Positions 23,752 to 58,615 of a stretch of 64,000 nucleotides of DNA are shown in pieces; the first letter of the stretch is position 1; each line of letters starts with the position of its first letter. Under the pieces are notes generated by a model that was not told where the DNA came from, made no database searches, and worked only from the letters and a program-made list of their open reading frames with translations. Origin of the DNA: Pseudomonadota bacterium (lineage in GTDB: Bacteria; Pseudomonadota; Gammaproteobacteria; JAKBBU01); contig JAKBBU010000003.1 in assembly GCA_021808365.1 (NCBI GenBank), forward strand, positions 4,685 through 68,684, given 5' to 3'. Position numbers and translations under genes: made by a program.

Positions 23752-23788
23752 GGGAACCTTCTAATTAAGTTTTTTACCAGCTTATCCC

Positions 23789-23880
23789 ATTTCTCACATT
23801 AATCAGTTACAGTGAAGGCTGCAGCAATGCCACAAGGCACATTGGTATAGTCTTCACTGTAACTGATTAATGTGAGAAAT
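23789..23880. repeat. 92-bp imperfect palindrome with a CAATGCCACAA core (family A)
   Basis: atttctcacattaatcagttacagtgaag...cttcactgtaactgattaatgtgagaaat. Related copies at 41848..41934, 44011..44107 and 57675..57742. Confidence 0.8.
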
Positions 23881-23940
23881 GAGATAAATCTTACTATAAG
23901 GCAGACAGGGAGGCAAGTAACTGTTAATTTTTTGCTCATT

Positions 23941-26900
23941 TTATATGAAATGGGTTTGTGTCGTCTCATTTCTAAAATCATTACTTTCCTTTTTATCATC
24001 TTTTTCCAAGTTGCTTTTATTGGGTTTATAAGAAGAGGCTGATAAAATAATATTTATATGAGGTATGGGTTGATCTTCACGAGTAACATCTTGATTATTG
24101 TTATTATTTGCTTCTCTCATTCTAACAAAGCGATTGTTATTTTGACCATTAAAAGCCTGATTAAAACAAGATAGGTAAGTTTTAGCTGATTGTAAGATGT
24201 CTAAAATATGACCTCTTGAAATGTCCTCAACAAGGGTATCCAGCTCACCATCTTTCGTGAGGAATGTTGGGGTTTGTTCAGATGCCGCTGCATCATGAGC
24301 CAAGAAATCTGTTAATACATTGAAAGTTGTTTGTTGTACTTTGTTTTTTCTAAGTAAATTGCTAAATTTACTATATTTTTCATCATTATTTAAATTCTTT
24401 AATCCATCACGGATTAAAAGCATCATCATTTTGATGCAGGCTGGAATGTAATGATCTTCTTCTAGCAAAATGTCTTTCTTTTCAGGGTTGTTATAAATAT
24501 ACGTGTGAATAGAAACAAGCATATTAAGTGCATAATTTACATTTTCTTTGGCGATGCTATTAATGTCGGGTTGGATAATATTTTCAAATTGGAAATCTAA
24601 TGGTTGACAATCGAGCAATTCTTCAAAGTTGAGTGTGATTTTGTCGCTGTTATTTAAAGGGATATTTTTCAATTTTTTCGTGATTTTAAAATGATTTTCA
24701 AAAGCGATCAATCCTCGAAGCGACTCAATGAGCGCTTTTATTTTTTCAGGATTATTAAAAAAATTGGTAGAGAACCCATGTTCAGCAGGATGTCTTAACA
24801 AGTTTCGGATCTTATTGGCCTGTCTTAAATAAGAGTCATTTTTAAAAATATTTAAATGATCTGTCGAAAGTTTTTTATCTTGGTGCTGTTTAATTAGCAC
24901 GTCGAAAGCATGAAAAAACTTAAAATTTTGATAGACAATTGCAGCGGGCAAACAACCCATTGGTGTAGAAATTTTTTTTGGATCAATGACCAAAAAGGCG
25001 TGTAGCCGTTCAATATATTGATTTACTAAAGCTTCTTGTTCATGCAAGATGGGTTTGCCAGATTTTTGCTCGATAGGCGTTATACGATTTTTTTTCTTAT
25101 AATGTCTTTTTTCTGTAGAAATTTTAATATTATTAAAATTTTCTGAAAGACGATCTTGTTTTGGAGGAAGCACATGCCAGTATTCTGGATTTTCATATTT
25201 AACTTCATTGAATTTTTCTTCAAGTTTTTCTTCCTCAAATTTTATTTCATCCGGTTTTTTTTGATCATTAACTATTTCTTGTTTTTTTTCTTGATTTAAA
25301 GCTGGAGTGGAGATCTTTGGAACTTCTACTTTGATTTTTTCATTATTAGGCTCTAAACCATCATCTTCTTCAGGATGATCAGCTTGAATGATAGCTTCAG
25401 CAGTTTCTAATTCGCAAGAAATAAATTGTACTTCAAGTTTAAGTTGTTTGACCTGTTCATCTAGATCGGTTGAAACAGCTTGACAAGTTTTAATGAATTT
25501 ATTTAATTGATTTGTTTTTTCTTCTAAGATTTTTAACGTGTCAAGATGTTTTTGTGCGTTTAAAAGGGTATTAATGCGTTCTTCTGATATATGACTGTGC
25601 AATGGAGATAAGATTTTCTGAATGGCTTCAATTTCAATATGTAAATTGTTAATATATTCATCATATTCTAATTTTCCCATTAATTCATTGTTTTTATTTT
25701 TTATTGTTTGAATGGTTTCTTCTAATTTTGTTAGTTTTTCAAGATTTTCTTTTTTTATTTTATATTTCTCTGTGGGTAAAAAGATAATATTTGAATTTTT
25801 AGTGAGCTTTTTAAGCTTATTTGACTGAGTGTCAAGATATTTTTTTGTTTCTTTTTGTTTGTTTTTCATGAGTTCAATTTGTTTGGATGAAAAATTAGTA
25901 TTAGTTTGAATGAACTCAAATTTTGATTTAATGATGGGCCCTTTTTTAAGCAAGTTATTTCCAGTATCTAGTAATTTTTTATGTAAAGTATCGATCGATT
26001 TTTTTCTAATAAAAGAGTTTTTTTTCAAAGTTACAGTGAGATTATTTTTATCATAAGAGGAGATGGCGGTTAAGAAAAAGTCAAGGATCATGTGAAACAA
26101 AGATGTTCGGATGAAAAAAATATTGTTTTTTTCAAAATGAACTCCACAGCCCTTGATGTTAATTTTAAATAATTTATCAATCAAATTCAGGTTGATGAAT
26201 TTTTCTAGAGGTTTAAGTGTTTCTTTAGTGATAGATGTGAATTCTGATTTTTTGTGACTCTTCAATAACTTATTTATTTCTGTTTTGAAAGACGCTTCTC
26301 TTTTGCTAATTGATTGGTTTGGAAAAAAGAGGTTGTCAAGTCGTATTGAATGTTCTTGGGCTTTTAAATGAGCTATTTCTTCAATAAATTTTGTAATATT
26401 TGAATCACAAAAAACATTTTTTTGATCAAGCTGCATTTCTAAGGCGGTTTTTGCAGAAAGATAAAAATCTTTATCTGAGGCATCAAGCATTTTACTCTGC
26501 TTGTAGAGCAAAGTAAACAAACCACCACACCAGAATATAAAAAAAATACTAATCCATGTATGAGAATTTGACCAATAAATCGGTTTGTTTTCTGAAAGAT
26601 ATTGAGTGATTACGTTTTTAAATTTATTTTCAAGATTGGAGTTTTCTGTAAGAAAATTTTCTATCTCTAGAAGGTATTGAGCATTTTTGAGTTCTTTGCG
26701 CGATAAAAATTTACGAAACTGACGAACACTATTTCCTTTCATTTCGGATAGAATTAATTGGCTGAAGAGCGTTCTTGAAAATGTTGTTATTGCTAAAGTT
26801 TTATTTGGTCCACCGTACGTAAAATCAATGGATATTTTTTGGCCATTAAATAAACTGTTTAAAAAAACATTTTCTAAAAAATCCATATAGGTCAATTTTA

Positions 26901-27684
26901 AATTTAAAACGCGATTGTGAAAAGCGATATTGTTTTTTATCTTATCAAATGTTGGGATCACTGTCTGATAATTGATGTTTTGGGGAGGGTTCATTTCGAA
27001 AAAAGCGACGGTGTTAATTAAAAAATCAAAAAATAAAAAGTGGCATTCTAATGAGAAATCGGTTAATAATATGTGTATTGTTTGGATGTCAATTAATTCA
27101 ATGTTAATTGCTTTTTTGTAAGCCAATGATTTGTAAAATGAATTTAAAGATTTTTCAGCGTTTACAGAGTATTCTCGCAAGCTAGAAAATGATGCAATAT
27201 ATTTTTTGGTGGTTTCGTTAGATTCTAAATTTTTAGTTTTTTCTATTTCTAAATCAATGATTGTACGATGTTGGTCAAAAGTAATGGCTGAAAAGTTCAA
27301 AGTATTATTTTCAAATAATAAATTATTATGCTTTAAAAAATCCAGGCTGTTCGATGAGTTTTTTTGACTTGGACTTTCAGAGGCTCTGAAGATAGAAGGG
27401 AGTGCTTGGAAGATGATGGGTAGTATCATAAACAATAAGACAGTGGCAAAAATTAGCGTAAGGATTAAGAGTAAACCCAGTAAAAAATCTTTAGGTTTAA
27501 TTGAACTCTTCGTAGTTTGTCGTGGGCGCAAAATAAAAGGGTTTTCAGAGGGGTGAGAGTGCCGCTCGGATCCATGGTCGCTCTGAGGGGGTTCACGCCC
27601 CGTTGAGCAGAGTACAAATTGATTTTCTACGGATTGTTTAGAGCTCTTTTCTTGATGGTTCGATTGTCTATTCATAGGGTTCAT
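23941..27684 (-). CDS. Large (1247 aa) Asn/Lys-rich protein: N-terminal TM helix, second TM about residue 385, long coiled-coil segments; candidate secreted or membrane effector
   Basis: AT-rich composition, well below that of neighbouring housekeeping genes. Heptad-like K/E/L repeats. Hydrophobic stretches LLGLLLILTLIFATVLLFMILPIIF and WISIFFIFWCGGLFTLLY. Confidence 0.6.
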   Translation of the reverse strand: MNPMNRQSNHQEKSSKQSVENQFVLCSTGREPPQSDHGSERHSHPSENPFILRPRQTTKSSIKPKDFLLGLLLILTLIFATVLLFMILPIIFQALPSIFRASESPSQKNSSNSLDFLKHNNLLFENNTLNFSAITFDQHRTIIDLEIEKTKNLESNETTKKYIASFSSLREYSVNAEKSLNSFYKSLAYKKAINIELIDIQTIHILLTDFSLECHFLFFDFLINTVAFFEMNPPQNINYQTVIPTFDKIKNNIAFHNRVLNLKLTYMDFLENVFLNSLFNGQKISIDFTYGGPNKTLAITTFSRTLFSQLILSEMKGNSVRQFRKFLSRKELKNAQYLLEIENFLTENSNLENKFKNVITQYLSENKPIYWSNSHTWISIFFIFWCGGLFTLLYKQSKMLDASDKDFYLSAKTALEMQLDQKNVFCDSNITKFIEEIAHLKAQEHSIRLDNLFFPNQSISKREASFKTEINKLLKSHKKSEFTSITKETLKPLEKFINLNLIDKLFKINIKGCGVHFEKNNIFFIRTSLFHMILDFFLTAISSYDKNNLTVTLKKNSFIRKKSIDTLHKKLLDTGNNLLKKGPIIKSKFEFIQTNTNFSSKQIELMKNKQKETKKYLDTQSNKLKKLTKNSNIIFLPTEKYKIKKENLEKLTKLEETIQTIKNKNNELMGKLEYDEYINNLHIEIEAIQKILSPLHSHISEERINTLLNAQKHLDTLKILEEKTNQLNKFIKTCQAVSTDLDEQVKQLKLEVQFISCELETAEAIIQADHPEEDDGLEPNNEKIKVEVPKISTPALNQEKKQEIVNDQKKPDEIKFEEEKLEEKFNEVKYENPEYWHVLPPKQDRLSENFNNIKISTEKRHYKKKNRITPIEQKSGKPILHEQEALVNQYIERLHAFLVIDPKKISTPMGCLPAAIVYQNFKFFHAFDVLIKQHQDKKLSTDHLNIFKNDSYLRQANKIRNLLRHPAEHGFSTNFFNNPEKIKALIESLRGLIAFENHFKITKKLKNIPLNNSDKITLNFEELLDCQPLDFQFENIIQPDINSIAKENVNYALNMLVSIHTYIYNNPEKKDILLEEDHYIPACIKMMMLLIRDGLKNLNNDEKYSKFSNLLRKNKVQQTTFNVLTDFLAHDAAASEQTPTFLTKDGELDTLVEDISRGHILDILQSAKTYLSCFNQAFNGQNNNRFVRMREANNNNNQDVTREDQPIPHINIILSASSYKPNKSNLEKDDKKESNDFRNETTQTHFI

Positions 27685-27886
27685 TTTTACTTTTCTATTG
27701 TACTAATGGTTAGTATTTTATGTTTCTGAGCCGAGTGTATCAAAGTTGAACAAACTATTGAAGAGGTAAATTTGCGACTGTACTTTTGCTTGTCTCAAGC
27801 CTCCTATCCTGATATGATGCGCGATTCTCCTTGCCTCACTGGGCTTGATGGTCAAGCTTGGGAGGCTGGAATCCACGGGGAGTTAT

Positions 27887-28276
27887 ATGAGACATTACGA
27901 AATTCTTTTTATGGTCCACCCGGATCAAAGTGAGCAAGTGCCACAGATGATCGAGCGCTATACGGCGATTGTTACTGGGCGCGAAGGTCAGGGTAAGGTC
28001 CACCGCCTGGAAGATTGGGGCCGCCGTCAACTGGCCTATCCTATCAATAAGCTTCACAAAGCCCACTACGTTCTCATGAATGTAGAATGCGGCCAAGCGG
28101 CCATGGACGAATTGGCTAACTTGTTCCGTTACAATGATGCCATCATTCGCAACATGGTTATAGCAACCAAAAAAGCGATTACTGAACCTTCGCCAATGGC
28201 ACGACGTGAAAAAGATGATCGTGATCGCGGTGGTGATCGGGATCGGGCTCAGGATTCACAAGAGAGGGCAGAATAA
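27887..28276 (+). CDS. rpsF: 30S ribosomal protein S6 (acidic C-terminal tail)
   Basis: [14 protein letters not shown].. with a GGGGAG SD at the correct spacing. Confidence 0.9.
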
Positions 28277-28510
28277 ATGTCAGCACCTACTAATTTTCGT
28301 CGTCGCAAGTATTGCCGGTTTACCGCAGAAGATGCGACTGAAATTGATTACAAAGATGTTGCCTTATTAAAAGGCTTCATCACAGAAACCGGTAAAATTG
28401 TTCCTTGTCGGATCACCGGTACAAAGGCGTACTATCAACGCATGTTGACGACTGCGATCAAACGTGCGCGCATGATGGCCTTATTGCCCTTTTGCGATGG
28501 GCATGGTTGA
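28277..28510 (+). CDS. rpsR: 30S ribosomal protein S18
   Basis: [38 protein letters not shown]. Confidence 0.9.
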
Positions 28511-28519
28511 GCGTGCAGC

Positions 28520-29431
28520 GTGCATAGACTTGGTGAGTTCATCCTGCGGGGGCGTTGGCATGCTGTTTTAATTGCCTTTGCTCTGACTTTTATTCCTCTG
28601 TTGAGTTGGCTTGGGGCCGTCATCATGGGATTAGTGACTCTCCGCAAAGGTCCAAAAGAAGGAGGGATGGTAGCGCTTGCTATTTCATTGCCCGCGATCG
28701 TTTGGGCTTTTCTTGGGCATCCGCAAGTCTTGCTTGGGAATGTGCTCTACGGTTCACTGCTTGTTTACATTGCGGCATTGTGTTTACGGATCTTGCCTTC
28801 TTGGCGCATTGTGCTCCAAGTGACGGTGTTGATGGGGATCGCAGGCGTCTTGGTGACGCACTTGGTTATTCACGATGTTGTCGTAGCTTGGATACATTAT
28901 TACCAACAGCTTGCAAAAACAGCGGGTCAATTGCTCGGTTCTGCTGGACTTGAGCAAGGGCGTGAAAATTGGAGAATGTTGAAGGCAGCTTTGGAGCAAC
29001 CTTACGTTGTTCAAACTATGGCCAAGATGTCAACGGGTATTTTTATTGCCTTCAACATCTTGGGAAGTTTGCTAAATTTAGTGATTGCCCGACTTTGGCA
29101 GGCGGCTCTTTATAATCCAGGTGGATTGCGTCGGGAATTATTAATCATTCGCCTGCATTCCGCATGGATTGGCGTGTGGTTAATTGATCTGCTTGGGATC
29201 TGGGGGCATGTTAATCTCGCCTGGGATATTTTGCCCTTACTGTTCTTGCTTTTTTTACCTGCGGGCTTAAGTGTGGTTCACGCCAGCCTTGCAAAACGAT
29301 CCAAGCCGTGGTTTTGGATCATCAGCTTTTATGCTGTATTAATTCTGCTGTCACCTTATTCGGTGATTGCATTGATTTTGGTGGCTGTATTAGATAGCGT
29401 TGTTGATCTTCGGCAGCGCTTCTCCTATTGA
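28520..29431 (+). CDS. Polytopic inner-membrane protein of unknown function, inserted between rpsR and rplI
   Basis: Six to eight hydrophobic helices and no catalytic motif. No priB is present at this locus. Confidence 0.5.
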   Translation: MHRLGEFILRGRWHAVLIAFALTFIPLLSWLGAVIMGLVTLRKGPKEGGMVALAISLPAIVWAFLGHPQVLLGNVLYGSLLVYIAALCLRILPSWRIVLQVTVLMGIAGVLVTHLVIHDVVVAWIHYYQQLAKTAGQLLGSAGLEQGRENWRMLKAALEQPYVVQTMAKMSTGIFIAFNILGSLLNLVIARLWQAALYNPGGLRRELLIIRLHSAWIGVWLIDLLGIWGHVNLAWDILPLLFLLFLPAGLSVVHASLAKRSKPWFWIISFYAVLILLSPYSVIALILVAVLDSVVDLRQRFSY

Positions 29432-29443
29432 AAGAGGTGCATG

Positions 29444-29893
29444 ATGGAAGTAATTTTGCTTGAAAAAGTACATAATCTTGGGAACTTAGGTAAGCAAGTG
29501 ACCGTGAAGCCTGGTTATGCGCGCAATTATTTATTGCCCAAGGGCAAGGCTGTGACGGCAACGCCCGAGAACAAACGCAAATTTGAGTTGCGTCGCGCTG
29601 AGCTTGAAAAAGCTGCTCAAGAAATTTTCTCAAAAGCGCAAGAACGTGCAAAAACATTTGAAAATATTTTGTTAGAAGTAGCAGCCAGAGCCAGTGATGA
29701 AGGTAAATTATTCGGTTCAGTGGGCCCACGTGAATTGGTTGAAGCGTTTGAAAAATTAGGTCTTGAAGTGGATAAGGCTGAAATCTTGCTACCTGAAGGG
29801 CCTTTCCGTCAAACGGGAGAACATGAAGTAAGCTTGCAATTGCACAGTGATATTCGTGTAGCTGTGAAGTTGATGATCATCGCGGAGGCTTGA
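29444..29893 (+). CDS. rplI: 50S ribosomal protein L9
   Basis: MEVILLEKVHNLGNLGKQVTVKPGYARNYLLPKGKAV. Confidence 0.9.
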   Translation: MEVILLEKVHNLGNLGKQVTVKPGYARNYLLPKGKAVTATPENKRKFELRRAELEKAAQEIFSKAQERAKTFENILLEVAARASDEGKLFGSVGPRELVEAFEKLGLEVDKAEILLPEGPFRQTGEHEVSLQLHSDIRVAVKLMIIAEA

Positions 29894-29894
29894 G

Positions 29895-31301
29895 ATTATT
29901 CAGCAACCATTCAAAACACCCCCTCATTCGCTTGAGGCAGAACAATCTGTTCTGGGCGGTTTGATGCTGGATCCCGAAGCCTGGGATAAAATCAGCGATA
30001 AAATTAGCACGGATGATTTCTACCGACTCGAGCATCGCACGTTGTTCAACGCAATGCTTGAGCTCGCCCGCAGAGATGTGCCCTTTGATGTGGTGACACT
30101 TTCCGATGCTTTAAAAGCCCGACAGCAATTGGATGCTGTCGGTGGCGAAGTTTATCTGTTCGAATTATCCCGCAATACGCCAAGTGCTGCAAACATTGCG
30201 GCCTATGCCGCGATTGTGCGTGAGCGCTCTGTCTTACGTCAATTGATTCAAATTGGTACGCAGATCACCGAATCAGGTTTCAAACCTGAAGGCCGTGAAG
30301 TTGCAGAAATTCTCGATGATGTGGAACAACGTATTTTTGCAGTGGCTGAGCAAGGTGCTCGTCCGGGTGGCCCTGTTAGCATCGGTGATTTATTTGGTCA
30401 GACCATCGATCGCATTCATGAATTAACGGAAAGCGGCGGTGAGCTGATTGGTTTAAGCACAGGCTTTAAAGATCTCGATCGTAAAACTTTGGGCTTACAA
30501 CCATCAGATTTGATCATTGTGGCCGGTCGGCCCTCCATGGGTAAAACAATGTTTGCCATGAATATTGCTGAATCTGCAGCGATTGAAGGTGATAAGCCAG
30601 TTTTAATTTTCAGTATGGAAATGCCAGGTGTGGCATTGGCGACACGGATGCTTTCATCCTTGGGTCGTATTGATCAACAACGCATACGAACAGGGAAATT
30701 AGACGACTCAGATTGGGTTAAGATCAGTTCTACATTAAGTATTCTTGCCGATAAAAAATTATTCATCGATGATACTCCTGGTTTAAGTCCTTCAGAAGTG
30801 CGCGCACGCGCGCGACGCTTGATGCGATCACAGGGGCAGCTTGGGTTGATCGTGATCGATTATTTGCAATTGATGCAAGTGCCTGGATCGAAAGAAAATC
30901 GTACGGCTGAAATTTCTGAAATTTCACGATCGCTTAAATCATTAGCCAAAGAATTAAATGTGCCCGTCGTTGCATTATCACAATTAAATCGTAGCTTGGA
31001 GCAGCGCCATGATCGCCGCCCCGTGATGTCAGATTTACGTGAATCAGGTGCCATCGAGCAAGATGCAGATCTCATCATGTTTATTTACCGTGATGAGGTA
31101 TACAATCCTGAAACGGCGGAAAAAAACAAAGCAGAAATTATTATTGGTAAACAACGGAATGGCCCAATCGGGACCATACTACTTACGTGTTTGGGACAGT
31201 ATACTCGTTTTGATAATTATATTAGTGAAAATGCTTATTCATCTTATGATCCACAAGTCAGTCAGCGTTCCAACTTACCCTCTACTCGAGAGTATGTATG
31301 A
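29895..31301 (+). CDS. dnaB: Replicative DNA helicase DnaB. The track start (TTG 29961) truncates the conserved N-terminus; the proposed start is ATT 29895.
   Basis: In-frame PPHSLEAEQSVLGGLMLD lies upstream of 29961. Walker A GRPSMGKT and IVIDYLQLM are present. A GGAGG box sits 6 nt before ATT 29895. Confidence 0.8.
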   Translation: MIQQPFKTPPHSLEAEQSVLGGLMLDPEAWDKISDKISTDDFYRLEHRTLFNAMLELARRDVPFDVVTLSDALKARQQLDAVGGEVYLFELSRNTPSAANIAAYAAIVRERSVLRQLIQIGTQITESGFKPEGREVAEILDDVEQRIFAVAEQGARPGGPVSIGDLFGQTIDRIHELTESGGELIGLSTGFKDLDRKTLGLQPSDLIIVAGRPSMGKTMFAMNIAESAAIEGDKPVLIFSMEMPGVALATRMLSSLGRIDQQRIRTGKLDDSDWVKISSTLSILADKKLFIDDTPGLSPSEVRARARRLMRSQGQLGLIVIDYLQLMQVPGSKENRTAEISEISRSLKSLAKELNVPVVALSQLNRSLEQRHDRRPVMSDLRESGAIEQDADLIMFIYRDEVYNPETAEKNKAEIIIGKQRNGPIGTILLTCLGQYTRFDNYISENAYSSYDPQVSQRSNLPSTREYV

Positions 31302-32377
31302 GTCGTGGCACTTGGGCTGAAATTGATGCCTCTGCCCTGCGGCATAATGTCAAAACCATTCAACACATAGCCCCTCATCAATTAATCATCGCCATGATTA
31401 AAGCAAATGCCTATGGGCATGGCATTAATCCCATCGCCGCTATTTTATCTGAAACTGATATTGAAGGTTTAGGCGTGGCTGTTTTAGAGGAAGCACTTGT
31501 GTTGCGGCAAGCGGGTATTTCCAAACGTATTATCTTAATGGAAGGTGTTTTTAATGCTGCGGAGTTAATTCATGCCGCGAGTGAAAACATGGATGTGGTT
31601 GTTCATCATCTTGGGCAATTAGAATTACTTGAACAAGTGATATTGCCTCATCCGATTCGCGTGTGGTTGAAAATCGATACAGGTATGCATCGCCTTGGGT
31701 TTTCGCCAGAAGATGTCAAAATAGTTTGGCAGCGATTACACGCCCTGTCGCAGGTTGAATCTATTATTCTGATGTCGCATTTTGCCTGTGCTGATCAGCA
31801 CCATGATCCGAAAACAGAAGATCAATTTAAGGTCTTTGAGCAGATTACAGCGGGAATACCAGGGTTAAAAAGTCTCGCTAATTCAGCGATTATTTTACAT
31901 CACTCTGAGAAGCATGCCGATTTATTAAGACCTGGAATTATGTTGTATGGTATTTCGCCTTTTTCAGATGAGTTGGGTGAAGACTACAATTTAAAGCCGG
32001 TGATGACCTTGCATGCACGAATTATTGCCGTAAAAACATTAAAGGCAGGTGAGTCTGTCGGTTATGGTGCAATCTGGAATTGCCCTTCGGATCGAAACAT
32101 CGGTGTGGTGAGTGTCGGTTATGGGGATGGTTATCCGCGCCATGCGATCAATGGCACGCCTGTGCTGGTGAATGGCAGGCGGGCCTCATTAATTGGCCGC
32201 GTTTCAATGGATATGATTACGGTAGATCTTTATGATCAACCCGATGCAAAAGTGGGTGATCCGGTTATTTTATGGGGACGTGGCTTACCCATTGAAACCA
32301 TCGCGCAATGTGCAAATACGATTGCCTATCAATTAACAACGCAGGTGACAGCCAGGGTGCCGAGGGTTATTGTTTAA
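31298..32377 (+). CDS. alr: Alanine racemase
   Basis: PLP-lysine motif IKANAYGHG. ATGA overlap with dnaB. Confidence 0.85.
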   Translation: MSRGTWAEIDASALRHNVKTIQHIAPHQLIIAMIKANAYGHGINPIAAILSETDIEGLGVAVLEEALVLRQAGISKRIILMEGVFNAAELIHAASENMDVVVHHLGQLELLEQVILPHPIRVWLKIDTGMHRLGFSPEDVKIVWQRLHALSQVESIILMSHFACADQHHDPKTEDQFKVFEQITAGIPGLKSLANSAIILHHSEKHADLLRPGIMLYGISPFSDELGEDYNLKPVMTLHARIIAVKTLKAGESVGYGAIWNCPSDRNIGVVSVGYGDGYPRHAINGTPVLVNGRRASLIGRVSMDMITVDLYDQPDAKVGDPVILWGRGLPIETIAQCANTIAYQLTTQVTARVPRVIV

Positions 32378-32467
32378 GGAAAAATAAATGCTCCGTTTTT
32401 CAATGCTTTTTGATTATTCATCAATACTCTGATGGCTTTTTCAAACTAAAATGTGATAAAAAACTAT

Positions 32468-32535
32468 TTTTTGCATTAAATACCTGAATTCATATAAATT
32501 CCAGTATTATAATACCGGAATTTGTATGAATTCAG
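32468..32535. promoter_or_regulatory. Near-perfect 31-bp-arm inverted repeat with no spacer, in the AT-rich gap upstream of the AAA+ ATPase gene
   Basis: aatacctgaattcatataaattccagtatta | taataccggaatttgtatgaattcaggtatt (2 mismatches). Confidence 0.4.
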
Positions 32536-32585
32536 GTATTATGCTATCCTTCTTGTATCGTTTAGATTTTAAATGATCAATCAAG

Positions 32586-33728: not shown

Positions 33729-33810
33729 TCTATAGCTGAGGCTTGAAATTCCTATTCTCTTTTTCTTAATATTTACTTAATGTTCATTAAATATAATACC
33801 AAGAAGGGCT

Positions 33811-34719: not shown

Positions 34720-34761
34720 ATTTTTTTCGTGACGAGGCATTGCGAAACAGTTGCCACATCA

Positions 34762-35367
34762 CTATTCATAACGTCTCTGTAATTTCAGTAAAACAGAATT
34801 CACATCAATTTCACATTGTTTCAACAAAACCAAGAGGTGAAACAATAAATCAGCAACCTCGCTGATTGTTTCTTCTCTTTGGCCCAAGGCACTGGCTAGG
34901 GCAACTTCAACACCTTCTTCACCAACTTTTTGGGCAATTCGCGCAATACCTGAATTAAATAACTCAGTGGTATAGCTGTTTTGTGGTCGTTCTTGAAAAC
35001 GCTGCTCGATTCGTTGTTCTAATTTAGCGAGCAGACCTAAACCTAGATGCTGTTCTGTATTAAAACAGCTCGGTGTATTTAAATGACAACAAGAGCCTTG
35101 TGGGTTGGCTAAAATTAATAAACTATCTTGGTCACAATCGGCAAAAATATCGACCAATTCTAAAAAATGTCCAGAAGTTTCACCTTTGACCCATAAACGT
35201 TGCTTACTTCGACTGTAAAATGTCACCTTCTTTGTGGAAAGCGTTTGATCCAGTGCCTCTTGATTCATATAACCTAGCATTAAAATTTGCAAGGTTTTAG
35301 AATCTTGAATCATAGTGGGGATCAAACCATTCATTTTTTCAAAATTTAAGTGTTCAAATTTTTTCAT
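34762..35367 (-). CDS. hisIE: Bifunctional phosphoribosyl-AMP cyclohydrolase / phosphoribosyl-ATP pyrophosphatase
   Basis: HisI N-domain (WVKGETSGH) plus HisE C-domain. Confidence 0.85.
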
Positions 35368-41577: not shown

Positions 41578-41847
41578 AGAACTCTCCCCAAAAAATACGT
41601 GAAAAAAAACCCTGGGTTGCTTTTGCCGCCCAGGGCTTCAATGGAGAGTCCATGAAGGGGGAGGCAAAGCCTCCCCGCCAGAAGAGACTTATCTCAACCG
41701 GTGATGGATATGATGTAGTACAAATTGAATAGACATAATGTTGACCTTTTCGAGGTAAAACCTCACTTAACATTAGATTATTCTATTTTTTCTAATCAGG
41801 CAAGGTTTTCTATCAAAAAAAATCAAAAAAATTTATAATAGGCCTTA

Positions 41848-41934
41848 TTCTCATATTAATCGAGTACAGAGAAGGATGCACCAATGCCACAACACGCATT
41901 GGTGCATCCTTCTCTGTACTCGATTAATATGAGA
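41848..41934. repeat. 87-bp palindrome, family A (loop CCACAACACG), in the divergent hisG / MFS promoter region
   Basis: ttctcatattaatcgagtacagagaaggatgcaccaatg..cattggtgcatccttctctgtactcgattaatatgagaa. Confidence 0.8.
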
Positions 41935-41958
41935 AAGGCAGCATCATAGGGATTTCGC

Positions 41959-44005: not shown

Positions 44006-44010
44006 GAGAT

Positions 44011-44107
44011 TTAGGCGCGTGATTGCATAGTGACAGGAAAGGCTGCACCAATACGTGTTCTGGTATTGGTGCAGCCTTTCCTGTCACTATGCAATCATGC
44101 GCCTAAA
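44011..44107. repeat. 97-bp palindrome, family A, in inverted orientation, between ihfB and rsmJ
   Basis: ttaggcgcgtgattgcatagtgacaggaaaggctgcaccaata..tattggtgcagcctttcctgtcactatgcaatcatgcgcctaa. Confidence 0.8.
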
Positions 44108-44127
44108 TCATGAAAAGTAGGTGCTGG

Positions 44128-45787: not shown

Positions 45788-45878
45788 GTTGCGTAACCCA
45801 ACAATGCAATCGCGAAACGTATAGTATTTTAATTTAAGAACAGCTAAAATGAACCAATCTTATTTGAAAGGGGTCTCC

Positions 45879-47786: not shown

Positions 47787-47934
47787 TTAAGACTTCTTTC
47801 TGAAACCAAGAATTTTGTGCAAGTTCAAGGCGCATGGCCTTCGAACAGCGGAGTTTATTGGGCATAAATGAGCAGCGGAGAAGGACATGCAACATAGAAA
47901 TTGCGCAAAAGGCGATGGTTTCGAAAGAAGTCGG

Positions 47935-49398: not shown

Positions 49399-49401
49399 AA
49401 C

Positions 49402-50742
49402 ATGCAACCCATAAAACCTGGTAAGAGAATCATTGCTCTCGCCCTCCCTATGGCAGGCAGTCAATTTGTCAGTGTGGCGAGCGGCTTTTTATGTATGGCT
49501 ATGCTAGCCGCATTAGGTCACGATGTCCTTGCCGCAAGCGCGCTTATTTTTTCGACACAATTGTCGATCATAGTGAGCGGCATGTCTATTTTATTTTCCC
49601 TGAGTGTTTTAGTCGGCCATGCTCATGGTGCAGAAGATCATCTGGCCGTTGGCAATTATTTACAACAAAGTTGGACATTATCACTCCTCATCAGTATTCC
49701 CATTATGTTTCTCTTTTGGCATATTGATGCCGTATTAATTTTCTTTGGTCAATCTAAAGAAATGGCGAGCATTGTACACGCCTATTTTCACGCTTATGTA
49801 TGGACTGTGCTTCCCTGGTTTTTAACCACCTGCAATATGCAATTTGGTTACGGGATCCATAAAAAAGCGCTTATTGTCACAACAAGTGCGCTCAGTGTCA
49901 TTGTACTGCTCATCGCAGCATATACCTTGATTTTTGGAAAATTCGGCATGCCCAAATTAGGCGTTGCTGGGCTTGGCTATGCAAGCTGTATTCAATCTAG
50001 CTTTTTCTTTATCGTGACCACGCTTTTTTTCTATCATGACAAAAGCTTTACACGATTTGAATTATTTCGTTATCGCGTCCATCAGAATTTGAGCTATTTT
50101 GCAAAAATGTTTAAATTAGGCTGGCCCATTTGCGTACAAATGAGCGGGGAAATGTTCTCGTTTTTTGTCAGCGGTATTATGATCGGGTGGATAGGAACGA
50201 CCGCGTTGGCTGCCTTTCAGATCATCAATCAGTATTATATGTTAATCGTTATTCCTATCTTTTCGCTTTCACAAGCCAGCGGCATATTAGTAGGGCATGC
50301 CTGCGGCGCTGAGCAATTTTCTGACGTGAAAAAATTAGCCTATGCCAGCATTAAAATCGTTCTTGTAGCCAGTTCTATCGTTGCGCTTATATTTTTATTC
50401 TTTCCTAAAAGCTTAGCGGCATTTTATATGAGCGTGAATGATCCTGCCAATGCAGCAACACTGCACTTAACGATTTTACTCTTCATCATTATTGCGTTTT
50501 CTCAGATGTTTGATGCTGTGCGGAATGTGTTAATCGGGATATTACGGGGATTGTTTGATACCCATTTTGCGATGTATACGAGTTTGTTAACCATCTGGAT
50601 CATTGGAATGCCCTTGAGCTATCTTTTGGCTTTCCCGCTTCATTTAGGCGCCGTGGGGTTTGTCATTGGCGGCATGTTGGGGATGCTGGGCGGTGTGACC
50701 ATTTTGGCTTGTCGATGGATGGTGTTGAGTCGGAGGTATTGA
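49402..50742 (+). CDS. MATE-family efflux transporter
   Basis: 12 TMS with MATE-like repeats. Confidence 0.7.
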   Translation: MQPIKPGKRIIALALPMAGSQFVSVASGFLCMAMLAALGHDVLAASALIFSTQLSIIVSGMSILFSLSVLVGHAHGAEDHLAVGNYLQQSWTLSLLISIPIMFLFWHIDAVLIFFGQSKEMASIVHAYFHAYVWTVLPWFLTTCNMQFGYGIHKKALIVTTSALSVIVLLIAAYTLIFGKFGMPKLGVAGLGYASCIQSSFFFIVTTLFFYHDKSFTRFELFRYRVHQNLSYFAKMFKLGWPICVQMSGEMFSFFVSGIMIGWIGTTALAAFQIINQYYMLIVIPIFSLSQASGILVGHACGAEQFSDVKKLAYASIKIVLVASSIVALIFLFFPKSLAAFYMSVNDPANAATLHLTILLFIIIAFSQMFDAVRNVLIGILRGLFDTHFAMYTSLLTIWIIGMPLSYLLAFPLHLGAVGFVIGGMLGMLGGVTILACRWMVLSRRY

Positions 50743-51016
50743 GGATGAATATACCCGAAGCGAATGAGTTTTCGGGTATATCATCCTCGAGATTGTAACG
50801 ACTACTAATTCGTTGACAGTTTTGATTAGCCCGAGATGGCTGCATCAACGAGATCCACCATAGTTTTGCCCATCAAAATGCCATCCCCCAGAAATTTTTA
50901 AACAACCAAGCGTAAGCACTTGACAGGCGGGAAGTATCCGAACTAGAATCGCGCCTCCCCTGTTTAAGAAGGGCTTGAGTGTTACTGCTCAGCTCCGATT
51001 GAAATTGGACGAAAGC

Positions 51017-51072
51017 TTATCGCGATGGGGGATTATTAAGGGGGAGAAACGCGAGTTCTCCCCCTTAATTGC
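51017..51072. repeat. GGGGGAGAA..TTCTCCCCC hairpin element (family B), inverted copy, upstream of rpsL
   Basis: cgcgatgggggattattaagggggagaaacgcgagttctcccccttaa. Other copies at 15254..15322 and 23139..23209. Confidence 0.75.
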
Positions 51073-51125
51073 GAGCCGAGGCTTTGCCTTGGCGAAGCAT
51101 TTGAATAGTAACGCCGGAGTTATCA

Positions 51126-51500
51126 ATGCCAACAATTAATCAGCTCGTCAAAAGCGGGCGACAAAGAGCGGTGGACAAGTCAAATGTCCCAGCGCTTCAG
51201 AGCTGTCCTCAAAAACGGGGCGTTTGTACGCGTGTGTATACCACAACGCCTAAGAAACCAAACTCAGCTTTGCGTAAGGTTGCGCGTATTCGCTTAACCA
51301 ATGGCTACGAAGTCACCGGTTACATCCCTGGGGAAGGCCATAACCTTCAAGAACACTCGGTGGTAACGATTCGTGGCGGTCGTGTGAAGGATTTGCCTGG
51401 TGTGCGTTATCACATTATTCGCGGTAGTTTAGATACGGCGGGTGTAAACGGTAGACGCCGTGGTCGTTCGAAATACGGTACAAAGAGACCTAAAGAGTAG
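51126..51500 (+). CDS. rpsL: 30S ribosomal protein S12
   Basis: [13 protein letters not shown].. Confidence 0.95.
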
Positions 51501-51521
51501 GCCGAAAGATAGGATAAAGTT

Positions 51522-52043
51522 ATGTCTAGAAGAAAAGCAGCCCCGAAACGTGAAATCCTCCCTGATCCAAAGTACGGAGATCAAGTTTTGGCTAAATTCA
51601 TGAATCACGTCATGAAGAGCGGTAAGAAATCGATTGCAGAACGTATCGTTTACGGTGCTTTGGAAATTGTTGAAGCTAAATTGAAGAGTGGTCATGCGCT
51701 TTCTGAAGGAGAGAGTCGTGAGGGCGAAAGCGGTGGTTCTCGTGCACTCGATGTCTTCGATAAAGCATTACAAAATGTTCGCCCGATGGTGGAAGTGAAA
51801 TCTCGCCGCGTGGGCGGTGCAACGTATCAAGTTCCAATCGAAGTTCGGCCAGTACGTAGTTTGACCTTGGCGATGCGTTGGTTGGTCGACTCAGCAAAGA
51901 CACGTGGCGAAAAGTCAATGCCCCAGCGTTTAGCGGGCGAGCTTCTTGAAGCGGCATCAAATCGTGGGAATGCTGTTAAAAAACGCGAAGATACGCATAG
52001 AATGGCCAAGGCTAACCAAGCCTTTGCGCATTATAGATGGTAA
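51522..52043 (+). CDS. rpsG: 30S ribosomal protein S7 (about 16-aa internal insertion)
   Basis: Ends ..AFAHYRW. Confidence 0.9.
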
Positions 52044-52058
52044 GAGTTTGAGGAATTT

Positions 52059-54176
52059 ATGGCAACAGCAGAATCAACACGTTCGACACCGCTCCATCTC
52101 TATAGGAATTTTGGGATCGCTGCGCACATCGATGCGGGCAAGACCACAACAACAGAGCGAGTTCTTTTCTATACCGGTGTTTCTCACCGGATCGGTGAAG
52201 TGCATGAAGGCGCTGCAACGATGGATTGGATGGAACAAGAACAAGAGCGCGGCATCACGATCACATCTGCAGCCACAACCTGCTATTGGAAGGGGATGGC
52301 GGGTCAATACGAATCTCATCGTTTTAATATCATTGATACCCCTGGACACGTTGACTTTACCATTGAAGTGGAGCGTTCCTTACGCGTACTCGATGGCGCA
52401 ATCACCGTTCTTTGTGCAGTAGGTGGTGTTGAGCCTCAAACAGAAACGGTTTGGCGGCAAGCAAATAAATACGGTGTACCTCGGATCATCTTTGTTAACA
52501 AAATGGATCGCTCAGGCGCTGATTTTCTACGGGTGGCTGAACAAGTTCATACGCGTCTTGCAGCAACGCCGGTTGTGATGCAATTGCCTATTGGTGCAGA
52601 AGAGCATTTCAAGGGTGTTATTGATCTCGTTCATATGAAAGCCATTTATTGGGATGATGCGACGCAAGGTATGACATTTAAAGAGCAAGATGTGCCTGAA
52701 GAGATGATGGCAGATTGCAAAAAATGGCGTGAAAAATTGGTAGAAGCTGCCGCAGAATCCACAGAAGAATTGATGGATAAATATTTAGGCGGCGAAGAAT
52801 TATCGATTGAAGAAATTAAAACAGGTATTCGCTCACGAACACTTCAAAATGAAATTATTCCTGTGTTCTGCGGCTCTGCATTTAAAAATAAAGGCGTTCA
52901 AGCCGTTTTAGATGCTGTTATTGACTATCTTCCATCACCGATGGACGTTCCTCCTGTCGTTGGGCATCTCGATGATGCTGCAGCCACAGAAGCTTCGCGT
53001 GCACCTTCGGATGATGAGCCTTTCTCAGCGCTCGTTTTCAAAATTGCAACGGATCCTTTTGTAGGAACATTAGCATTTTTCCGTGTGTATTCAGGTGTTG
53101 TTAACACGGGTGATACGGTGTATAACCCCGTAAAAGAAAAACGTGAGCGAATTGGTCGCTTATTGCAAATGCATGCGAATAATCGCCAAGAAATTAAAGA
53201 AGTGCGCGCAGGGGATATTGGCGCAGCTGTGGGTTTGAAAAATGCGACGACGGGTGATACGCTGTGTGACCTTAACAAGATCATCACATTGGAGCGCATG
53301 GAATTCCCTGAGCCTGTGATTGCAGTTGCTGTTGAACCTAAAACAAAAGCCGATCAAGAAAAGATGGGACTGGCCTTGAATAAATTGGCTCAAGAAGATC
53401 CTTCCTTCCGTGTTCATACGGATGAAGAGTCTGGCCAGACGATCATCGAAGGAATGGGTGAATTACACCTTGAAATTATTGTTGATCGGATGAAACGTGA
53501 ATTTAAAGTTGAAGCAAATGTCGGCAAACCTCGCGTAGCTTATCGTGAAACCATTCGCAAATCGGTTGAGCAAGAAGGCAAATTTATTCGTCAATCGGGT
53601 GGCCGTGGACAATACGGGCATGTATGGTTGAAGATTGAGCCTAAAGAAGCTGGAACGGGTTATGAGTTTGTAAATGCCATCGTCGGTGGCGCAATTCCGA
53701 AAGAATATATTCCTGCTGTTGATAAAGGTGTGCAAGAACAATTGCAGAATGGGGTGATTGCGGGTTATCCTGTCGTCGACGTAAAGGTCACCTTGTTCGA
53801 TGGAACCTACCATGACGTAGATTCAAGCGAAATGGCCTTTAAAATTGCAGGCTCGATGTGTTTCAAGGAAGGTGCGAAGAAGGCAAACCCTGTTCTTCTC
53901 GAACCGATCATGAAAGTTGAGGTCACGACACCCGAGGATTACATGGGTGATGTCGTCGGTGATTTAAATCGACGCCGTGGTATGATTCAAGGCATGGAGG
54001 ATCTGTACGGCAACCTGAAAATGGTCCGCTGTGAAGTTCCTTTGGCTGAGATGTTTGGTTATGCGACCGATTTGCGTTCTGCAACGCAAGGCCGTGCAAC
54101 CTATTCAATGGAATTTTGTAAATACAATGAGGCACCGGCGAATGTCGCTGATGCTGTTATTAAACGCGACCAATAG
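52059..54176 (+). CDS. fusA: Elongation factor G
   Basis: G1 AHIDAGKTT, 705 aa. Confidence 0.95.
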
Positions 54177-54192
54177 CTAGAGGGGTACTTAA

Positions 54193-55383
54193 ATGGCAAA
54201 GGAAAAATTTGACCGGTCTAAACCACACTGCAACATCGGAACGATTGGGCACGTGGATCACGGTAAAACAACATTGACAGCAGCAATTACGACTGTGTTG
54301 TCAAAGAAGGGCGGCGCAGTGGCAAAAGCCTATGGTGATATTGATGCAGCGCCTGAAGAAAGAGCACGTGGTATTACGATCAATACTGCACACGTGGAAT
54401 ATCAAACCGATGCTCGGCATTATGCGCACGTTGATTGCCCAGGACACGCGGATTATGTGAAGAACATGATCACCGGTGCGGCGCAAATGGACGGTGCAAT
54501 CCTTGTGGTTTCAGCGGCTGATGGTCCTATGCCTCAAACGCGTGAACACATCCTCTTGGCCCGCCAAGTCGGTGTACCAGCTCTCGTGGTTTTCATGAAT
54601 AAAGTTGACATGGTTCAAGACGAAGAGTTATTAGAACTTGTTGAAATGGAAATCAGAGAATTACTGAGTAAATATGAATTTCCTGGTGATGATATTCCAA
54701 TCATTAAAGGATCTGCTTTAAAAGCATTGGAAGGAGATACAGGTCCATTAGGTGAGCCAGCCATCCTTGAATTGATGAAAGCCGTTGATGAATATATTCC
54801 TCAACCAGAACGTGAAACAGACAAACCTTTCTTGATGCCCGTGGAAGATGTGTTCTCCATCTCAGGTCGTGGTACGGTTGTGACCGGCCGGATCGAGCGC
54901 GGTATCATTAAAGTGGGTGAAGAAATTGAAATCGTTGGTTTGAAGCCTACGGTTAAAACAACTTGCACAGGCGTTGAAATGTTCCGCAAATTGTTGGATC
55001 AAGGTCAAGCTGGTGATAACGTCGGTATCTTGTTACGTGGAACGAAGCGTGAAGATGTTGAACGCGGTCAAGTGTTAGCAAAACCCGCTTCAATCACACC
55101 GCATACGAAATTCGAAGCAGAAGTATATGTGTTATCAAAAGAAGAAGGTGGCCGTCATACGCCATTCTTCAAAGGCTATCGTCCTCAGTTCTACTTCAGA
55201 ACGACAGACGTAACCGGTGCAGTGGAATTACCTACGGGCGTTGAAATGGTAATGCCTGGAGATAATTTGAAGTTTGTTGTGACCTTGATTTCGCCCATCG
55301 CGATGGAAGAAGGGTTACGTTTTGCAATCCGCGAAGGTGGCCGTACAGTGGGTGCCGGCGTTGTGACGAAAGTAATAGAATAG
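54193..55383 (+). CDS. tuf: Elongation factor Tu
   Basis: [10 protein letters not shown], 396 aa. Confidence 0.95.
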
Positions 55384-55400
55384 TTAGAGTAAGTAACATT

Positions 55401-55727
55401 ATGGCAGTAAGTAAGAACGGTCAGACCATACGCATTCGTATGAAGGCGTATGATCATCGCCAGATCGATCAGTCAACACAAGAAATTGTAGAGACCGCAA
55501 AGAGAACGGGAGCACAGGTTCGTGGACCGATCCCGTTACCCACGCGTAAGGAACGGTTTGTCGTCACGACATCACCGAATATCGATAAGGATTCACGGGA
55601 TCAATTCGAGATTCGTGTTTATAAGCGTTTGGTTGATATTGTTCAACCTACGGATAAAACAGTGGATGCCTTGATGAAGCTTGATCTCGCTGCCGGTGTT
55701 GATATTCAGATCAGTGTTGAGAGCTAG
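55401..55727 (+). CDS. rpsJ: 30S ribosomal protein S10
   Basis: [15 protein letters not shown].. Confidence 0.9.
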
Positions 55728-55767
55728 CGATAAGAAGATGAAATATCGGATTTATTTTTTTCGTCAT

Positions 55768-55824
55768 CCCGGGATTTAATGGTTCTTAGCGAGTACTCTC
55801 GCTTAGAACCACTAAATACCCGGG
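55768..55824. repeat. 57-bp palindrome in the rpsJ-rplC spacer, plus a second small hairpin at 55884..55901
   Basis: cccgggatttaatggttcttagcgag tact ctcgcttagaaccactaaatacccggg. Confidence 0.7.
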
Positions 55825-55928
55825 ATCCAGAAAGTAAAAAAAGATTTTTTCATTAACAGAAGAAATCTTTTTTATAAGACTGGATTCCCGCCTCCGCGGG
55901 AATGACAGCAATGTGTGAGGTTTTTAAA

Positions 55929-56582
55929 ATGGCAATTGGTTTAGTAGGCCAAAAAATAGGCATGACACGCGTATTCACACCAGAAGGAGTGTCATTACCC
56001 GTTTCTGTGATCCAGGTGACACCCAACCGCGTTACACAAGTTAAAACGCTTGAAAATGATGGTTATCGTGCACTCCAAGTGACCACAGGGACACGTCGTG
56101 CTTCAAGAGTCACGCGTCCTATGGCAGGGCACTTTGCAAAAGCAGGTGTTGAAGCGGGGCGTGGTGTTTGGGAATTCCGCTTGGCTGAAACTGAAACCAC
56201 TGATGTTACCGTTGGACAAGAATTAAATGTCGATATCTTTGCAGAAGGTCAAGAAGTCGATGTCACCGGCACATCAAAAGGGAAGGGATTTGCAGGAACA
56301 GTTAAACGCCACAATTTCCGTACGCAAGATGCGACACATGGTAATTCGCGTTCTCACCGTGTTCCAGGGTCAATTGGCCAACGTCAAACGCCAGGTCGTG
56401 TTTTCAAAGGTAAGAAAATGGCCGGGCATATGGGATCGGAGCGTGTGACCATTCAAACACAAAAAATTGTCCGTGTTGATGCAGAGCGAGGATTGATCCT
56501 TGTGTGCGGCGGGATCCCTGGCGCACCCGGTGGCAATGTGATCGTCAGACCTGCAGTAAAAGCGAAAAGAGTTAAAGGTTAG
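55929..56582 (+). CDS. rplC: 50S ribosomal protein L3
   Basis: [17 protein letters not shown]. Confidence 0.9.
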
Positions 56583-56603
56583 AATTTAATTAGTTTATAT
56601 AAG

Positions 56604-56745
56604 GTGAAGTTAAGAGAACGTTCAATGTTGAGTCAAGGTTGGACGAAAAATTGACGAAAAGGGGCGCAGTGTATAAGGACATACATGAGCACTTTGAGGC
56701 AATTTTTCGTTCAAGATTGACCAACAGTGGACGTTCCCCTAAAGA
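56604..56745 (+). mobile_element. MITE-like element of about 140 bp with about 18-bp terminal inverted repeats, copy 1 (rplC-rplD spacer)
   Basis: GAGAACGTTCAATGTTGAG ... CAACAGTGGACGTTCCC. About 85-90% identical to copy 2 at 61344..61487 and to copy 3 (inverted) at 63103..63236. Confidence 0.8.
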
Positions 56746-56757
56746 GGAACAATCACA

Positions 56758-57375
56758 GTGGAATTACAATTAAGACAGTCCGACGGAACACAAGGCGGCA
56801 TGATCAGCCTGTTGGATGATGCATTTGCTCAACCCTTCAACGAAACTTTGGTGCACCAAATCATTACAGCTTATCGTGCGGCTGCACGTGCAGGTACAAA
56901 AGCTCAAAAAACACGCGCCCAAGTTCGTGGCGGCGGTGCAAAACCTTGGCGCCAAAAGGGGACAGGTCGTGCTCGTGCAGGAACAAGTCGTAGCCCGCTC
57001 TGGCGTAAAGGTGGCGTGATTTTCGCCGCCGTACCCAGAGATTATACGCAAAAAGTAAATAAGAAAATGTACCGTGCAGCGATGCGGTCCATTGTGTCTG
57101 AACTGATTCGCCAAGAACGCATTTCAATTGTTGAATCATTTGAAGTTGAAGAGCCTAGAACTAAAGCCATGTTAGCGAAATTAAAAAATTTCGCCTTCGA
57201 TGGTGGTTTGATCATCACCGATTACGTGAGTGACAACCTTTGGTTGGCAACACGCAATTTATTTAAAATTGATATCTGCGAAGCGCATGAAGTTGATCCG
57301 TACACCTTGGTTCGTCATGAATATGTATTGATTACTGTTGCGGCGCTTAAGCAATTAGAGGAGAGACTGGCATGA
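56758..57375 (+). CDS. rplD: 50S ribosomal protein L4 (GTG start)
   Basis: Collinear with E. coli L4. Confidence 0.9.
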   Translation: MELQLRQSDGTQGGMISLLDDAFAQPFNETLVHQIITAYRAAARAGTKAQKTRAQVRGGGAKPWRQKGTGRARAGTSRSPLWRKGGVIFAAVPRDYTQKVNKKMYRAAMRSIVSELIRQERISIVESFEVEEPRTKAMLAKLKNFAFDGGLIITDYVSDNLWLATRNLFKIDICEAHEVDPYTLVRHEYVLITVAALKQLEERLA

Positions 57376-57665
57376 ATACTGAACGCCTCATGAAGGTCAT
57401 CCTTGCACCGCTCATTTCTGAAAAAGGTAATCGGGTTGCAGAAAAAAATCGTCAGGTTGTCTTTAAAGTAATGCCTTGCGCTAAAAAACCAGAGATTAAA
57501 GCTGCGGTTGAATTGATGTTTGAAGTAAAAGTTGATGCAGTTCGTGTGCTCAACGTAGGAGGAAAGAAGAAGCGCTCTGGGCAGATCCTCGGCCAACGTA
57601 AATCTTGGAGGAAAGCTTATGTTTCCTTGCAAGAAGGGCATGATATTAATTTCGCAGATTTGTAA
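57372..57665 (+). CDS. rplW: 50S ribosomal protein L23
   Basis: 97 aa; position and motifs. Confidence 0.9.
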   Translation: MNTERLMKVILAPLISEKGNRVAEKNRQVVFKVMPCAKKPEIKAAVELMFEVKVDAVRVLNVGGKKKRSGQILGQRKSWRKAYVSLQEGHDINFADL

Positions 57666-57674
57666 CGAGAAAGA

Positions 57675-57742
57675 GTATCAGTACCAGGGAAGGTTACATC
57701 AATACCACAACAGTATTGGTGTAACCTTCCCTGGTACTGATA
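57675..57742. repeat. 68-bp palindrome, family A (CAATACCACAACAG core), in the rplW-rplB spacer
   Basis: tatcagtaccagggaaggttacatcaatac cacaacag gtattggtgtaaccttccctggtactgata. Confidence 0.8.
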
Positions 57743-58601: not shown

Positions 58602-58615
58602 TAAGAGAGAAGTTT

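Follow-up and report, generated by a model that had tools for sequence, protein, structure and literature searches.

A family of long intergenic palindromes with a conserved apex and compensated arms in the genome of an uncultured gammaproteobacterium

A stretch of 64,000 nt from a Pseudomonadota bacterium (Gammaproteobacteria, lineage JAKBBU01; contig JAKBBU010000003.1, positions 4,685 to 68,684), called the window here, carried four long palindromes at gene boundaries, which we named Family A (copies 1–4). The four copies had an apex of approximately 50 nt in common, and their outer arms differed from copy to copy while remaining self-complementary within each copy. On balance, we lean towards reading Family A as a lineage-specific, non-autonomous, hairpin-forming interspersed repeat with subfamilies, of the REPIN or miniature inverted-repeat transposable element (MITE) kind in the broad sense, and co-transcribed with its host genes. 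We class Family A as a new sequence family of interspersed palindromic hairpin repeats, a broad and well-known kind, and assign it to no named family. The source-genome DNA covered by the analysis amounted to approximately 84 kb, comprising the 64-kb window, its right flank (L085, 10 kb), and its left flank (L089, 6 kb).

An inverted-repeat scan showed that copies 1–4 were the longest palindromes of the window. A first-pass annotation, made by reading the sequence alone, had reported four near-perfect hairpins; all of them were present at, or no more than 7 nt from, the positions it gave, with arms of 30–48 nt that were 90–100% complementary. The copies and their apical modules are as follows.

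Copy 1: 23782-23887, + strand; 106-bp palindrome, arms of 48 nt, 90% complementary (43/48 paired), loop of 10 nt; apical module at ~23810-23859, loop CACAAGGC on the + strand.
Copy 2: 41848-41935, + strand; 88-bp perfect palindrome, arms of 40 nt, 100% complementary (40/40 paired), loop of 8 nt; apical module at 41867-41916, loop CACAACAC on the + strand.
Copy 3: 44008-44109, - strand; 102-bp palindrome, arms of 47 nt, 98% complementary (46/47 paired), loop of 8 nt; apical module at 44034-44083, loop CAGAACAC on the - strand.
Copy 4: 57676-57742, + strand; 67-bp palindrome, arms of 30 nt, 97% complementary (29/30 Watson-Crick and one T-G), loop of 7 nt; apical module at 57685-57733, loop CACAACA on the + strand.

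Folding energies, proposed earlier as a check on the hairpins, supported them. The RNA folds of the four copies ranged from -51 to -86 kcal/mol (z = -12.7 to -19.7), and the DNA folds gave z-scores of -12 to -20. The z-scores were calculated against 200 shuffles, and 0/200 shuffles folded equally well.

The degenerate core CAATRCCACAACAYGYATTG proposed in the first-pass annotation was found exactly at 41882, with 1 mismatch at 44049 (minus strand), and with 3 mismatches at 23825. In copy 4, at 57700, it fitted only with a 1-nt deletion, which lies in the loop. The window thus held 3 matches to the core, compared with 0.02 expected by chance. Conservation of a core therefore held, but its proposed size of ~20 bp was too small. 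A gap-free stem alignment, numbered outward from the loop, showed that the conserved block comprised stem positions 1–21 on each side together with the CACAACAC loop (~50 nt). The consensus of the block was CAGnRAAGGnTRCAnCAATRC - loop CACAACAC - GYATTGnTGYAnCCTTYnCTG. Twelve of stem positions 1–21 were invariant across the four copies, and the left arms of copies 2 and 3 were identical at 17/21 positions. An 18-nt left-arm pattern searched over the 64 kb found exactly copies 1–4 and nothing else convincing, and an nhmmer profile likewise recovered exactly these four. With the same pattern and profile, no further copies were found in the window, in L085, in L089, or in the corresponding loci of relatives. 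The apex was found in all four copies, as expected for the single repeat family proposed earlier, and its presence at four unlinked sites excludes an independent origin of the copies.

Outside the block, the copies diverged in sequence and kept their pairing. Two or more types of Watson-Crick pair were seen at 20 of the 40 stem positions, including every position from 22 to 30, so that the earlier description of arms that differ and yet remain self-complementary was confirmed. Relative to copy 2, 34 differences were two-sided (compensated) and 7 were one-sided. Copies 2–4 combined had 115/117 Watson-Crick pairs and a single G-T pair. The identity between copies 2 and 3 was at least 81% at positions 1–21, compared with 21% at positions 22–40. 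The outermost ~14 bp of copy 3 (beyond approximately position 33) had no detectable similarity to the other copies, and 13/14 of these positions paired. The shorter copy 4 had arms resembling those of copies 1 and 2 at positions 24–29. The termini of the elements differed among the copies (TTATCCCATT..., TTCTCATATT..., GATTTAGGCG..., and TATCAGTACC...).

Copies 1 and 2 had similar outer arms, as had been noticed in the first reading, with 15/19 identical nucleotides at positions 22–40 and a common TTCTCAYATTAATC... sequence. This result bears on the origin of the arms. It had been suggested that the arms are generated afresh at each insertion; the finding of TTCTCAYATTAATC in the unlinked copies 1 and 2 speaks against this. 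Since these two copies, at unlinked loci, have outer arms of the same sequence, the arms were not made from local flanks, and the whole ~90-bp palindrome appears to have been copied as a unit in that subfamily.

A related explanation is that arm complementarity was made or maintained in place by replication template-switching in a quasi-palindrome, a process in which one arm serves as template for the other and which perfects a palindrome and can extend it outward. The apical module alone would then be ancestral or mobile, and some outer arms, such as the outermost 14 bp of copy 3, would be converted local flank. The outermost arms of copy 3, which are unlike the others and nevertheless pair at 13/14 positions, agree with this explanation, and the near-strict Watson-Crick pairing (115/117, one G-T) suits copying of DNA better than selection at the RNA level. 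It is also established in E. coli that inverted repeats are made "perfect or more perfect" in this way (PMC7202029). On the other side, copies 1 and 2 have the same outer-arm sequence at unlinked loci, copy 1 retains 5 uncorrected mismatches near the apex, and the flanks of copy 4 are unconverted, with an insertion of at least 92 nt compared with a palindrome of 67 nt. We regard this explanation as unlikely to be the principal one. It is not mutually exclusive with a mobile repeat, and the two models are inseparable with four copies; a contribution at the DNA level is plausible.

Copy 1 had a different pattern of change from the other copies. Its 5 stem mismatches all fell within positions 1–13, its loop carried 3 changes, and positions 14–43 were perfectly paired. 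Three of the changes in the apical arms were G>A or C>T transitions. These changes in copy 1 may stem from a mutational hot spot at the tip of the hairpin, or a perfect centre may be selected against.

The comparison with relatives that the first-pass annotation had proposed gave evidence of insertion. The lineage is an isolated one, and the relatives compared were L076 (the nearest, with an L4 protein 70% identical) and L099 (the next); other L4 proteins were no more than 63% identical. The rplW-rplB spacer is 108 nt in length and contains the palindrome of copy 4 in the source genome, versus 16 nt in L076 and 24 nt in L099, with no palindrome in either. The insertion is at least 92 nt long, with a recognisable rplW stop codon on one side and a recognisable Shine-Dalgarno sequence, AAGGTAGTTA, on the other. 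The empty rplW-rplB junction in the relatives indicates that at least copy 4 is an insertion. Other spacers of the S10 region (window 55400-63250) were also longer than those of L076, namely S10-L3 (200 vs 38 nt), L3-L4 (175 vs 0 nt), L14-L24 (170 vs 23 nt), and S8-L6 (140 vs 9 nt). Imperfect inverted repeats were seen in the inflated S10-L3, L3-L4, and S8-L6 spacers (56632-56721, 63113-63212, 55774-55817, and 55822-55888), and the sequence CGAAAAATT was common to two of them.

All copies were located at gene boundaries, 11–53 nt past stop codons or 24–39 nt ahead of start codons, and three of the four lay between co-oriented genes. Copy 1 is 53 nt downstream of the stop codon of a 1247-aa orphan gene and 31 nt upstream of def, both genes being on the minus strand. 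The divergent region between hisG and an MFS transporter gene holds copy 2, 24 nt ahead of the MFS start codon. An HU/IHF-family gene and rsmJ (PF04445), both on the minus strand, flank copy 3, which is 18 nt past the stop codon of the former and upstream of the latter. Copy 4 begins 11 nt past the rplW stop codon, within the S10 operon and ahead of rplB. The gene names first given to these sites (def, the large orphan, hisG/MFS, the HU/IHF-family gene with RsmJ, and rplW-rplB) were all correct. The asymmetric loop was on the + strand in three copies and in the sense of the downstream gene in three, which were a different set of three. Since the two sets differ, the orientation of the element is not fixed relative to replication or transcription.

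The palindromes could instead be ordinary intrinsic (Rho-independent) terminators that are alike by coincidence. Strong hairpins do follow stop codons in three cases, and a role as terminators had been suggested in the first reading. Nevertheless, no T-run followed the stem at any copy, and the terminator scan called none of the four. At copy 4, transcription must read through from rplW into rplB, and another copy lies in a divergent promoter region. A common 50-nt sequence would not be expected from independent evolution. The terminator explanation is thus largely refuted, and we give it very little credence.

Another explanation is that the copies are host-selected cis-acting hairpins, such as protein-bound, regulon-like RNA or DNA sites, RNase III sites, or mRNA-stability sites, rather than selfish repeats. 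The conservation of an asymmetric apex in all copies (the CACAACAC loop and the TGCACCAAT stem), the position of every copy at a gene boundary, and a loop that is sense to the presumed transcript of the downstream gene in three of four copies are in line with such a role. However, the neighbouring genes (def, the MFS transporter gene, rsmJ, and rplB) are functionally unrelated, the two nearest relatives lack the rplW-rplB element, the apex has decayed in copy 1, and the orientation to transcription is not uniform. A search of Rfam at the gathering score found only two tRNAs in the window and no family match for the palindromes; at relaxed E-values, only generic plant microRNA-precursor hairpin models were returned, all below their gathering scores. 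We consider host selection an improbable explanation of Family A.

Two further observations concern the immediate surroundings of the copies. A perfect TATAAT hexamer is located at 41834-41839, just upstream of copy 2, and the promoter scan called no full promoter at this site. If this hexamer serves as a -10 box, the 5′-end of the MFS mRNA would be a 40-bp hairpin. At copy 1, public gene callers called a 60-aa open reading frame, P0122 (23799-23981, minus strand), which spans the palindrome and overlaps the end of the 1247-aa gene. P0122 is almost certainly spurious, its C-terminal 28 residues being translated palindrome.

Assembly or amplification artefacts (fold-back chimeras) were also considered. 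Metagenome assemblies are the only source from which the organism is known. Its public contigs, which come from two third-party annotation (TPA) metagenome-assembled genomes (GCA_027437335.1 and GCA_027437445.1), Logan runs, and several assemblies at ENA, were 99.98–100% identical to the window. In some assemblies, contigs ended at or within palindromes, which could point to an artefact. Two contigs of ERZ27237223 abutted copy 2, with their ends beside or within it (~41833/41877), Logan contigs ended at the 23137-23174 palindrome (~23143), and another contig began inside the 56632-56721 repeat (~56681). Perfect inverted repeats probably cause such breaks through an effect on the de Bruijn graph. 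The identity of 100% across independent samples and pipelines (ENA MEGAHIT-style assemblies, Logan, and two NCBI metagenome-assembled genomes), together with the small size of the elements, their intergenic location, and a core common to four loci, refutes the artefact explanation. In practice, assemblies of this organism from metagenomes are broken at the palindromes, and spurious genes are called there. In addition, the first 89 nt of an ENA contig (L094:1-89) failed to align to the window at a point within the 1247-aa gene (~26189); they may represent a variant or an artefact of the contig end.

Family A was accompanied by other palindromes in the same genome. Eleven hairpins with a stem of at least 14 bp were present in the 64 kb, compared with 0–1 in shuffles, and none was present in the loci of the relatives. 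Several families of palindromic repeats have evidently invaded this genome, and Family A is the longest among them. A second, shorter family with arms TTAAGGGGGAGA / TCTCCCCCTTAA was located at 15252-15287, 23137-23174, and 51035-51069; these three copies were all intergenic, one following a sigma-factor gene, one separating def from glyQ, and one lying upstream of rpsL. A third family of hairpins, based on TGTTGGGTTACGC / GCGTAACCCAACA, was located at 22130-22223 and at L085:16881-16935 (approximately window 70120-70180, after rplQ). A loopless 62-bp palindrome was found at 32479-32540.

Two large genes stood out in the window. The 1247-aa orphan gene (23941-27684, minus strand) has a G+C content of approximately 31% and no Pfam hit. 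A 3380-aa gene, which occupies 29-3775 of the window and extends leftwards into L089, had faint FG-GAP hits and internal repeats that were 30–38% identical. These two genes, a eukaryote-like Ser/Thr kinase, and many MFS transporters suggest a host-associated lifestyle.

The searches for Family A elsewhere returned no palindromic relative. A scan with RAAGGNTRCANCAATRCCANAA of one genome for each of 185,579 species, in which the source genome was evidently not included, gave 71 single, non-palindromic chance hits in unrelated taxa. Pattern scans of JGI metagenomes gave 0 hits and then 8 non-palindromic chance hits. The IMG/VR scan gave 23 hits, all of which were groups of coding sequences from related phages and none of which was palindromic; blastn against plasmids and phages gave no match. 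A six-frame pseudo-protein search with the four elements returned nothing at E ≤ 10, but this search was uninformative, as it missed its positive control P0122, which the searched protein collection contains (local E = 5e-7). Two further look-ups for additional loci of the organism gave no new DNA. A profile of two outer-membrane protein (OMP) paralogues found only the two window genes and an unrelated, 33%-identical protein from another sample, and an EF-Tu look-up for a second tuf locus found only one locus.

The boundaries of the elements were also examined. Flanking direct repeats were no longer than 4 nt, had sliding boundaries, differed for each copy, and were compatible with chance; a 2-nt duplication could be excluded only with more than four copies. 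The target-site duplication of Correia elements is TA. GTAG, CTAC, CGTC, and GACG were absent from the elements and their 15-nt flanks, except for one GTAG located 8 nt outside copy 3.

We propose that an ancestral palindrome of ~70–100 bp was dispersed among intergenic sites and split into subfamilies, represented by copies 1 and 2, by copy 3, and by the short copy 4. The apical ~50 nt (the 21-bp stem and the CACAACAC loop) are the most constrained part, and we infer that they may be the part recognised by the propagating machinery, while at the base of the stem only pairing would be needed. Only palindromic masters would propagate, and each copy would be young enough to stay nearly perfect. 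A need for palindromy in propagation would produce two-sided differences between subfamilies, and recognition of the apex would produce the gradient of conservation along the stem. Inserted copies would be co-transcribed with their neighbours and would form perfect RNA duplexes of 30–47 bp. By analogy with Correia elements, these duplexes may act as RNase III substrates or as stabilisers of mRNA ends, and not as terminators.

A more specific variant is that the apex is a recognition module and the base is built by snap-back or template-switch synthesis, with the new arms then carried onward. It would involve an enzyme new to such repeats and an architecture inverse to that of both REPINs and classical MITEs. 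We consider this variant a long shot.

Several results weigh against a mobile repeat. Only four copies were seen, and no transposase, RAYT-type, or insertion sequence (IS) gene was called in the ~84 kb. Neither consistent target-site duplications nor conserved termini were found at the four copies. All public contigs were ~100% identical to the window and provided no presence/absence polymorphism between strains, and the relatives with empty rplW-rplB sites are distant (L4 no more than 70% identical). REPINs conserve their ends and Family A its apex, which is an inverted architecture. Finally, the decayed apex and perfect outer arms of copy 1 are not predicted by a simple model of young copies. 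By extrapolation only, four copies per ~84 kb would correspond to approximately a hundred in a genome assumed to be 2–3 Mb in size.

Family A can be compared with several known systems. The imperfect palindromes of integron attC sites, 57–141 bp long, are recognised in the form of folded single strands, and their sequence varies while pairing is kept. The outer R/L boxes of attC are conserved and the centre varies, with extrahelical bases, and the sites occur in tandem cassette arrays beside intI. Unlike attC, Family A has no R/L boxes, no layout of extrahelical bases, and no cassette array or intI setting. Readings of the copies as attC, retron msd, or CRISPR-like elements were rejected because there is no array and no adjacent integrase or reverse transcriptase, and the pattern of conservation is wrong.

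In a REPIN, two REP units stand in inverted orientation; the ends are highly conserved, and the spacer between them is less so and changes in a compensating manner (Bertels & Rainey 2011, PMC3116915). REPINs are mobilised by RAYT tyrosine transposases (IS200/IS605-like Y1 enzymes), the cognate gene lying in the genome with the repeats on its flanks. REPINs document compensatory changes in a mobile hairpin repeat (PMC3116915). Like REPINs, Family A consists of symmetric intergenic hairpin repeats of ~100 bp that are present in several copies, show two-sided changes, and are non-autonomous; REPINs have no target-site duplications (PMC3116915), and no clear ones were seen at the four copies of Family A. 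They differ in that the centre of Family A is constant and its ends vary, whereas the REP 16-mer ends of REPINs are invariant and the spacer varies. Moreover, neither arm of a Family A copy forms a small REP hairpin by itself, the GTAG/CGTC tag is missing, and no RAYT gene was seen in the ~84 kb. Tagged REPs (GTAG/CGTC) are palindromes of 20–40 bp with an unpaired GTAG or CGTC at one end (Di Nocera et al. 2013, PMC3733652). They resemble Family A as palindromic intergenic repeats that are mostly downstream of coding regions, plausibly form transcribed hairpins, and occur as several families per genome (PMC3733652). In contrast, the copies of Family A are 67, 88, 102, and 106 bp in length, and no tag is found in or next to the four copies.

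Correia elements are transcribed inverted repeats that are processed by RNase III (PMC2649163, PMC10969869). Family A resembles Correia elements (CREE) of Neisseria and ERIC of enterobacteria in its size, inverted repeats, insertion into operon spacers, and co-transcription (PMC2649163, PMC10969869, PMC2229807). The expected consequence would also be similar, namely cleavage or protection by RNase III and altered mRNA stability. Correia and ERIC elements, as MITEs, have conserved terminal inverted repeats, a distinct core, and target-site duplications, unlike Family A, which has variable termini, no detectable duplication, and an 8-nt unpaired centre. Conserved terminal inverted repeats matching a parent IS, by which classical MITEs are recognised, were not found, and the covered DNA contained no IS. 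In the Ripley model, template switching within a quasi-palindrome perfects imperfect inverted repeats (Klaric, Perr & Lovett 2020, PMC7202029). This process would yield strictly Watson-Crick, two-sided changes like those of Family A. It is, however, a mutational mechanism and not an element family, and it leaves unexplained the 50-nt core at four unlinked loci and the arms shared between copies.

If our preferred reading of Family A as an interspersed hairpin repeat is true, small hairpin repeats have colonised the compact genome of an uncultured gammaproteobacterium, reaching the spacers of its ribosomal-protein operon and shaping the processing of its mRNA. The combination of a constant apex and a variable base, which is the inverse of the REPIN arrangement, with near-strict Watson-Crick pairing would make Family A a natural case in which to separate selection for a hairpin from correction of palindromes at the DNA level.

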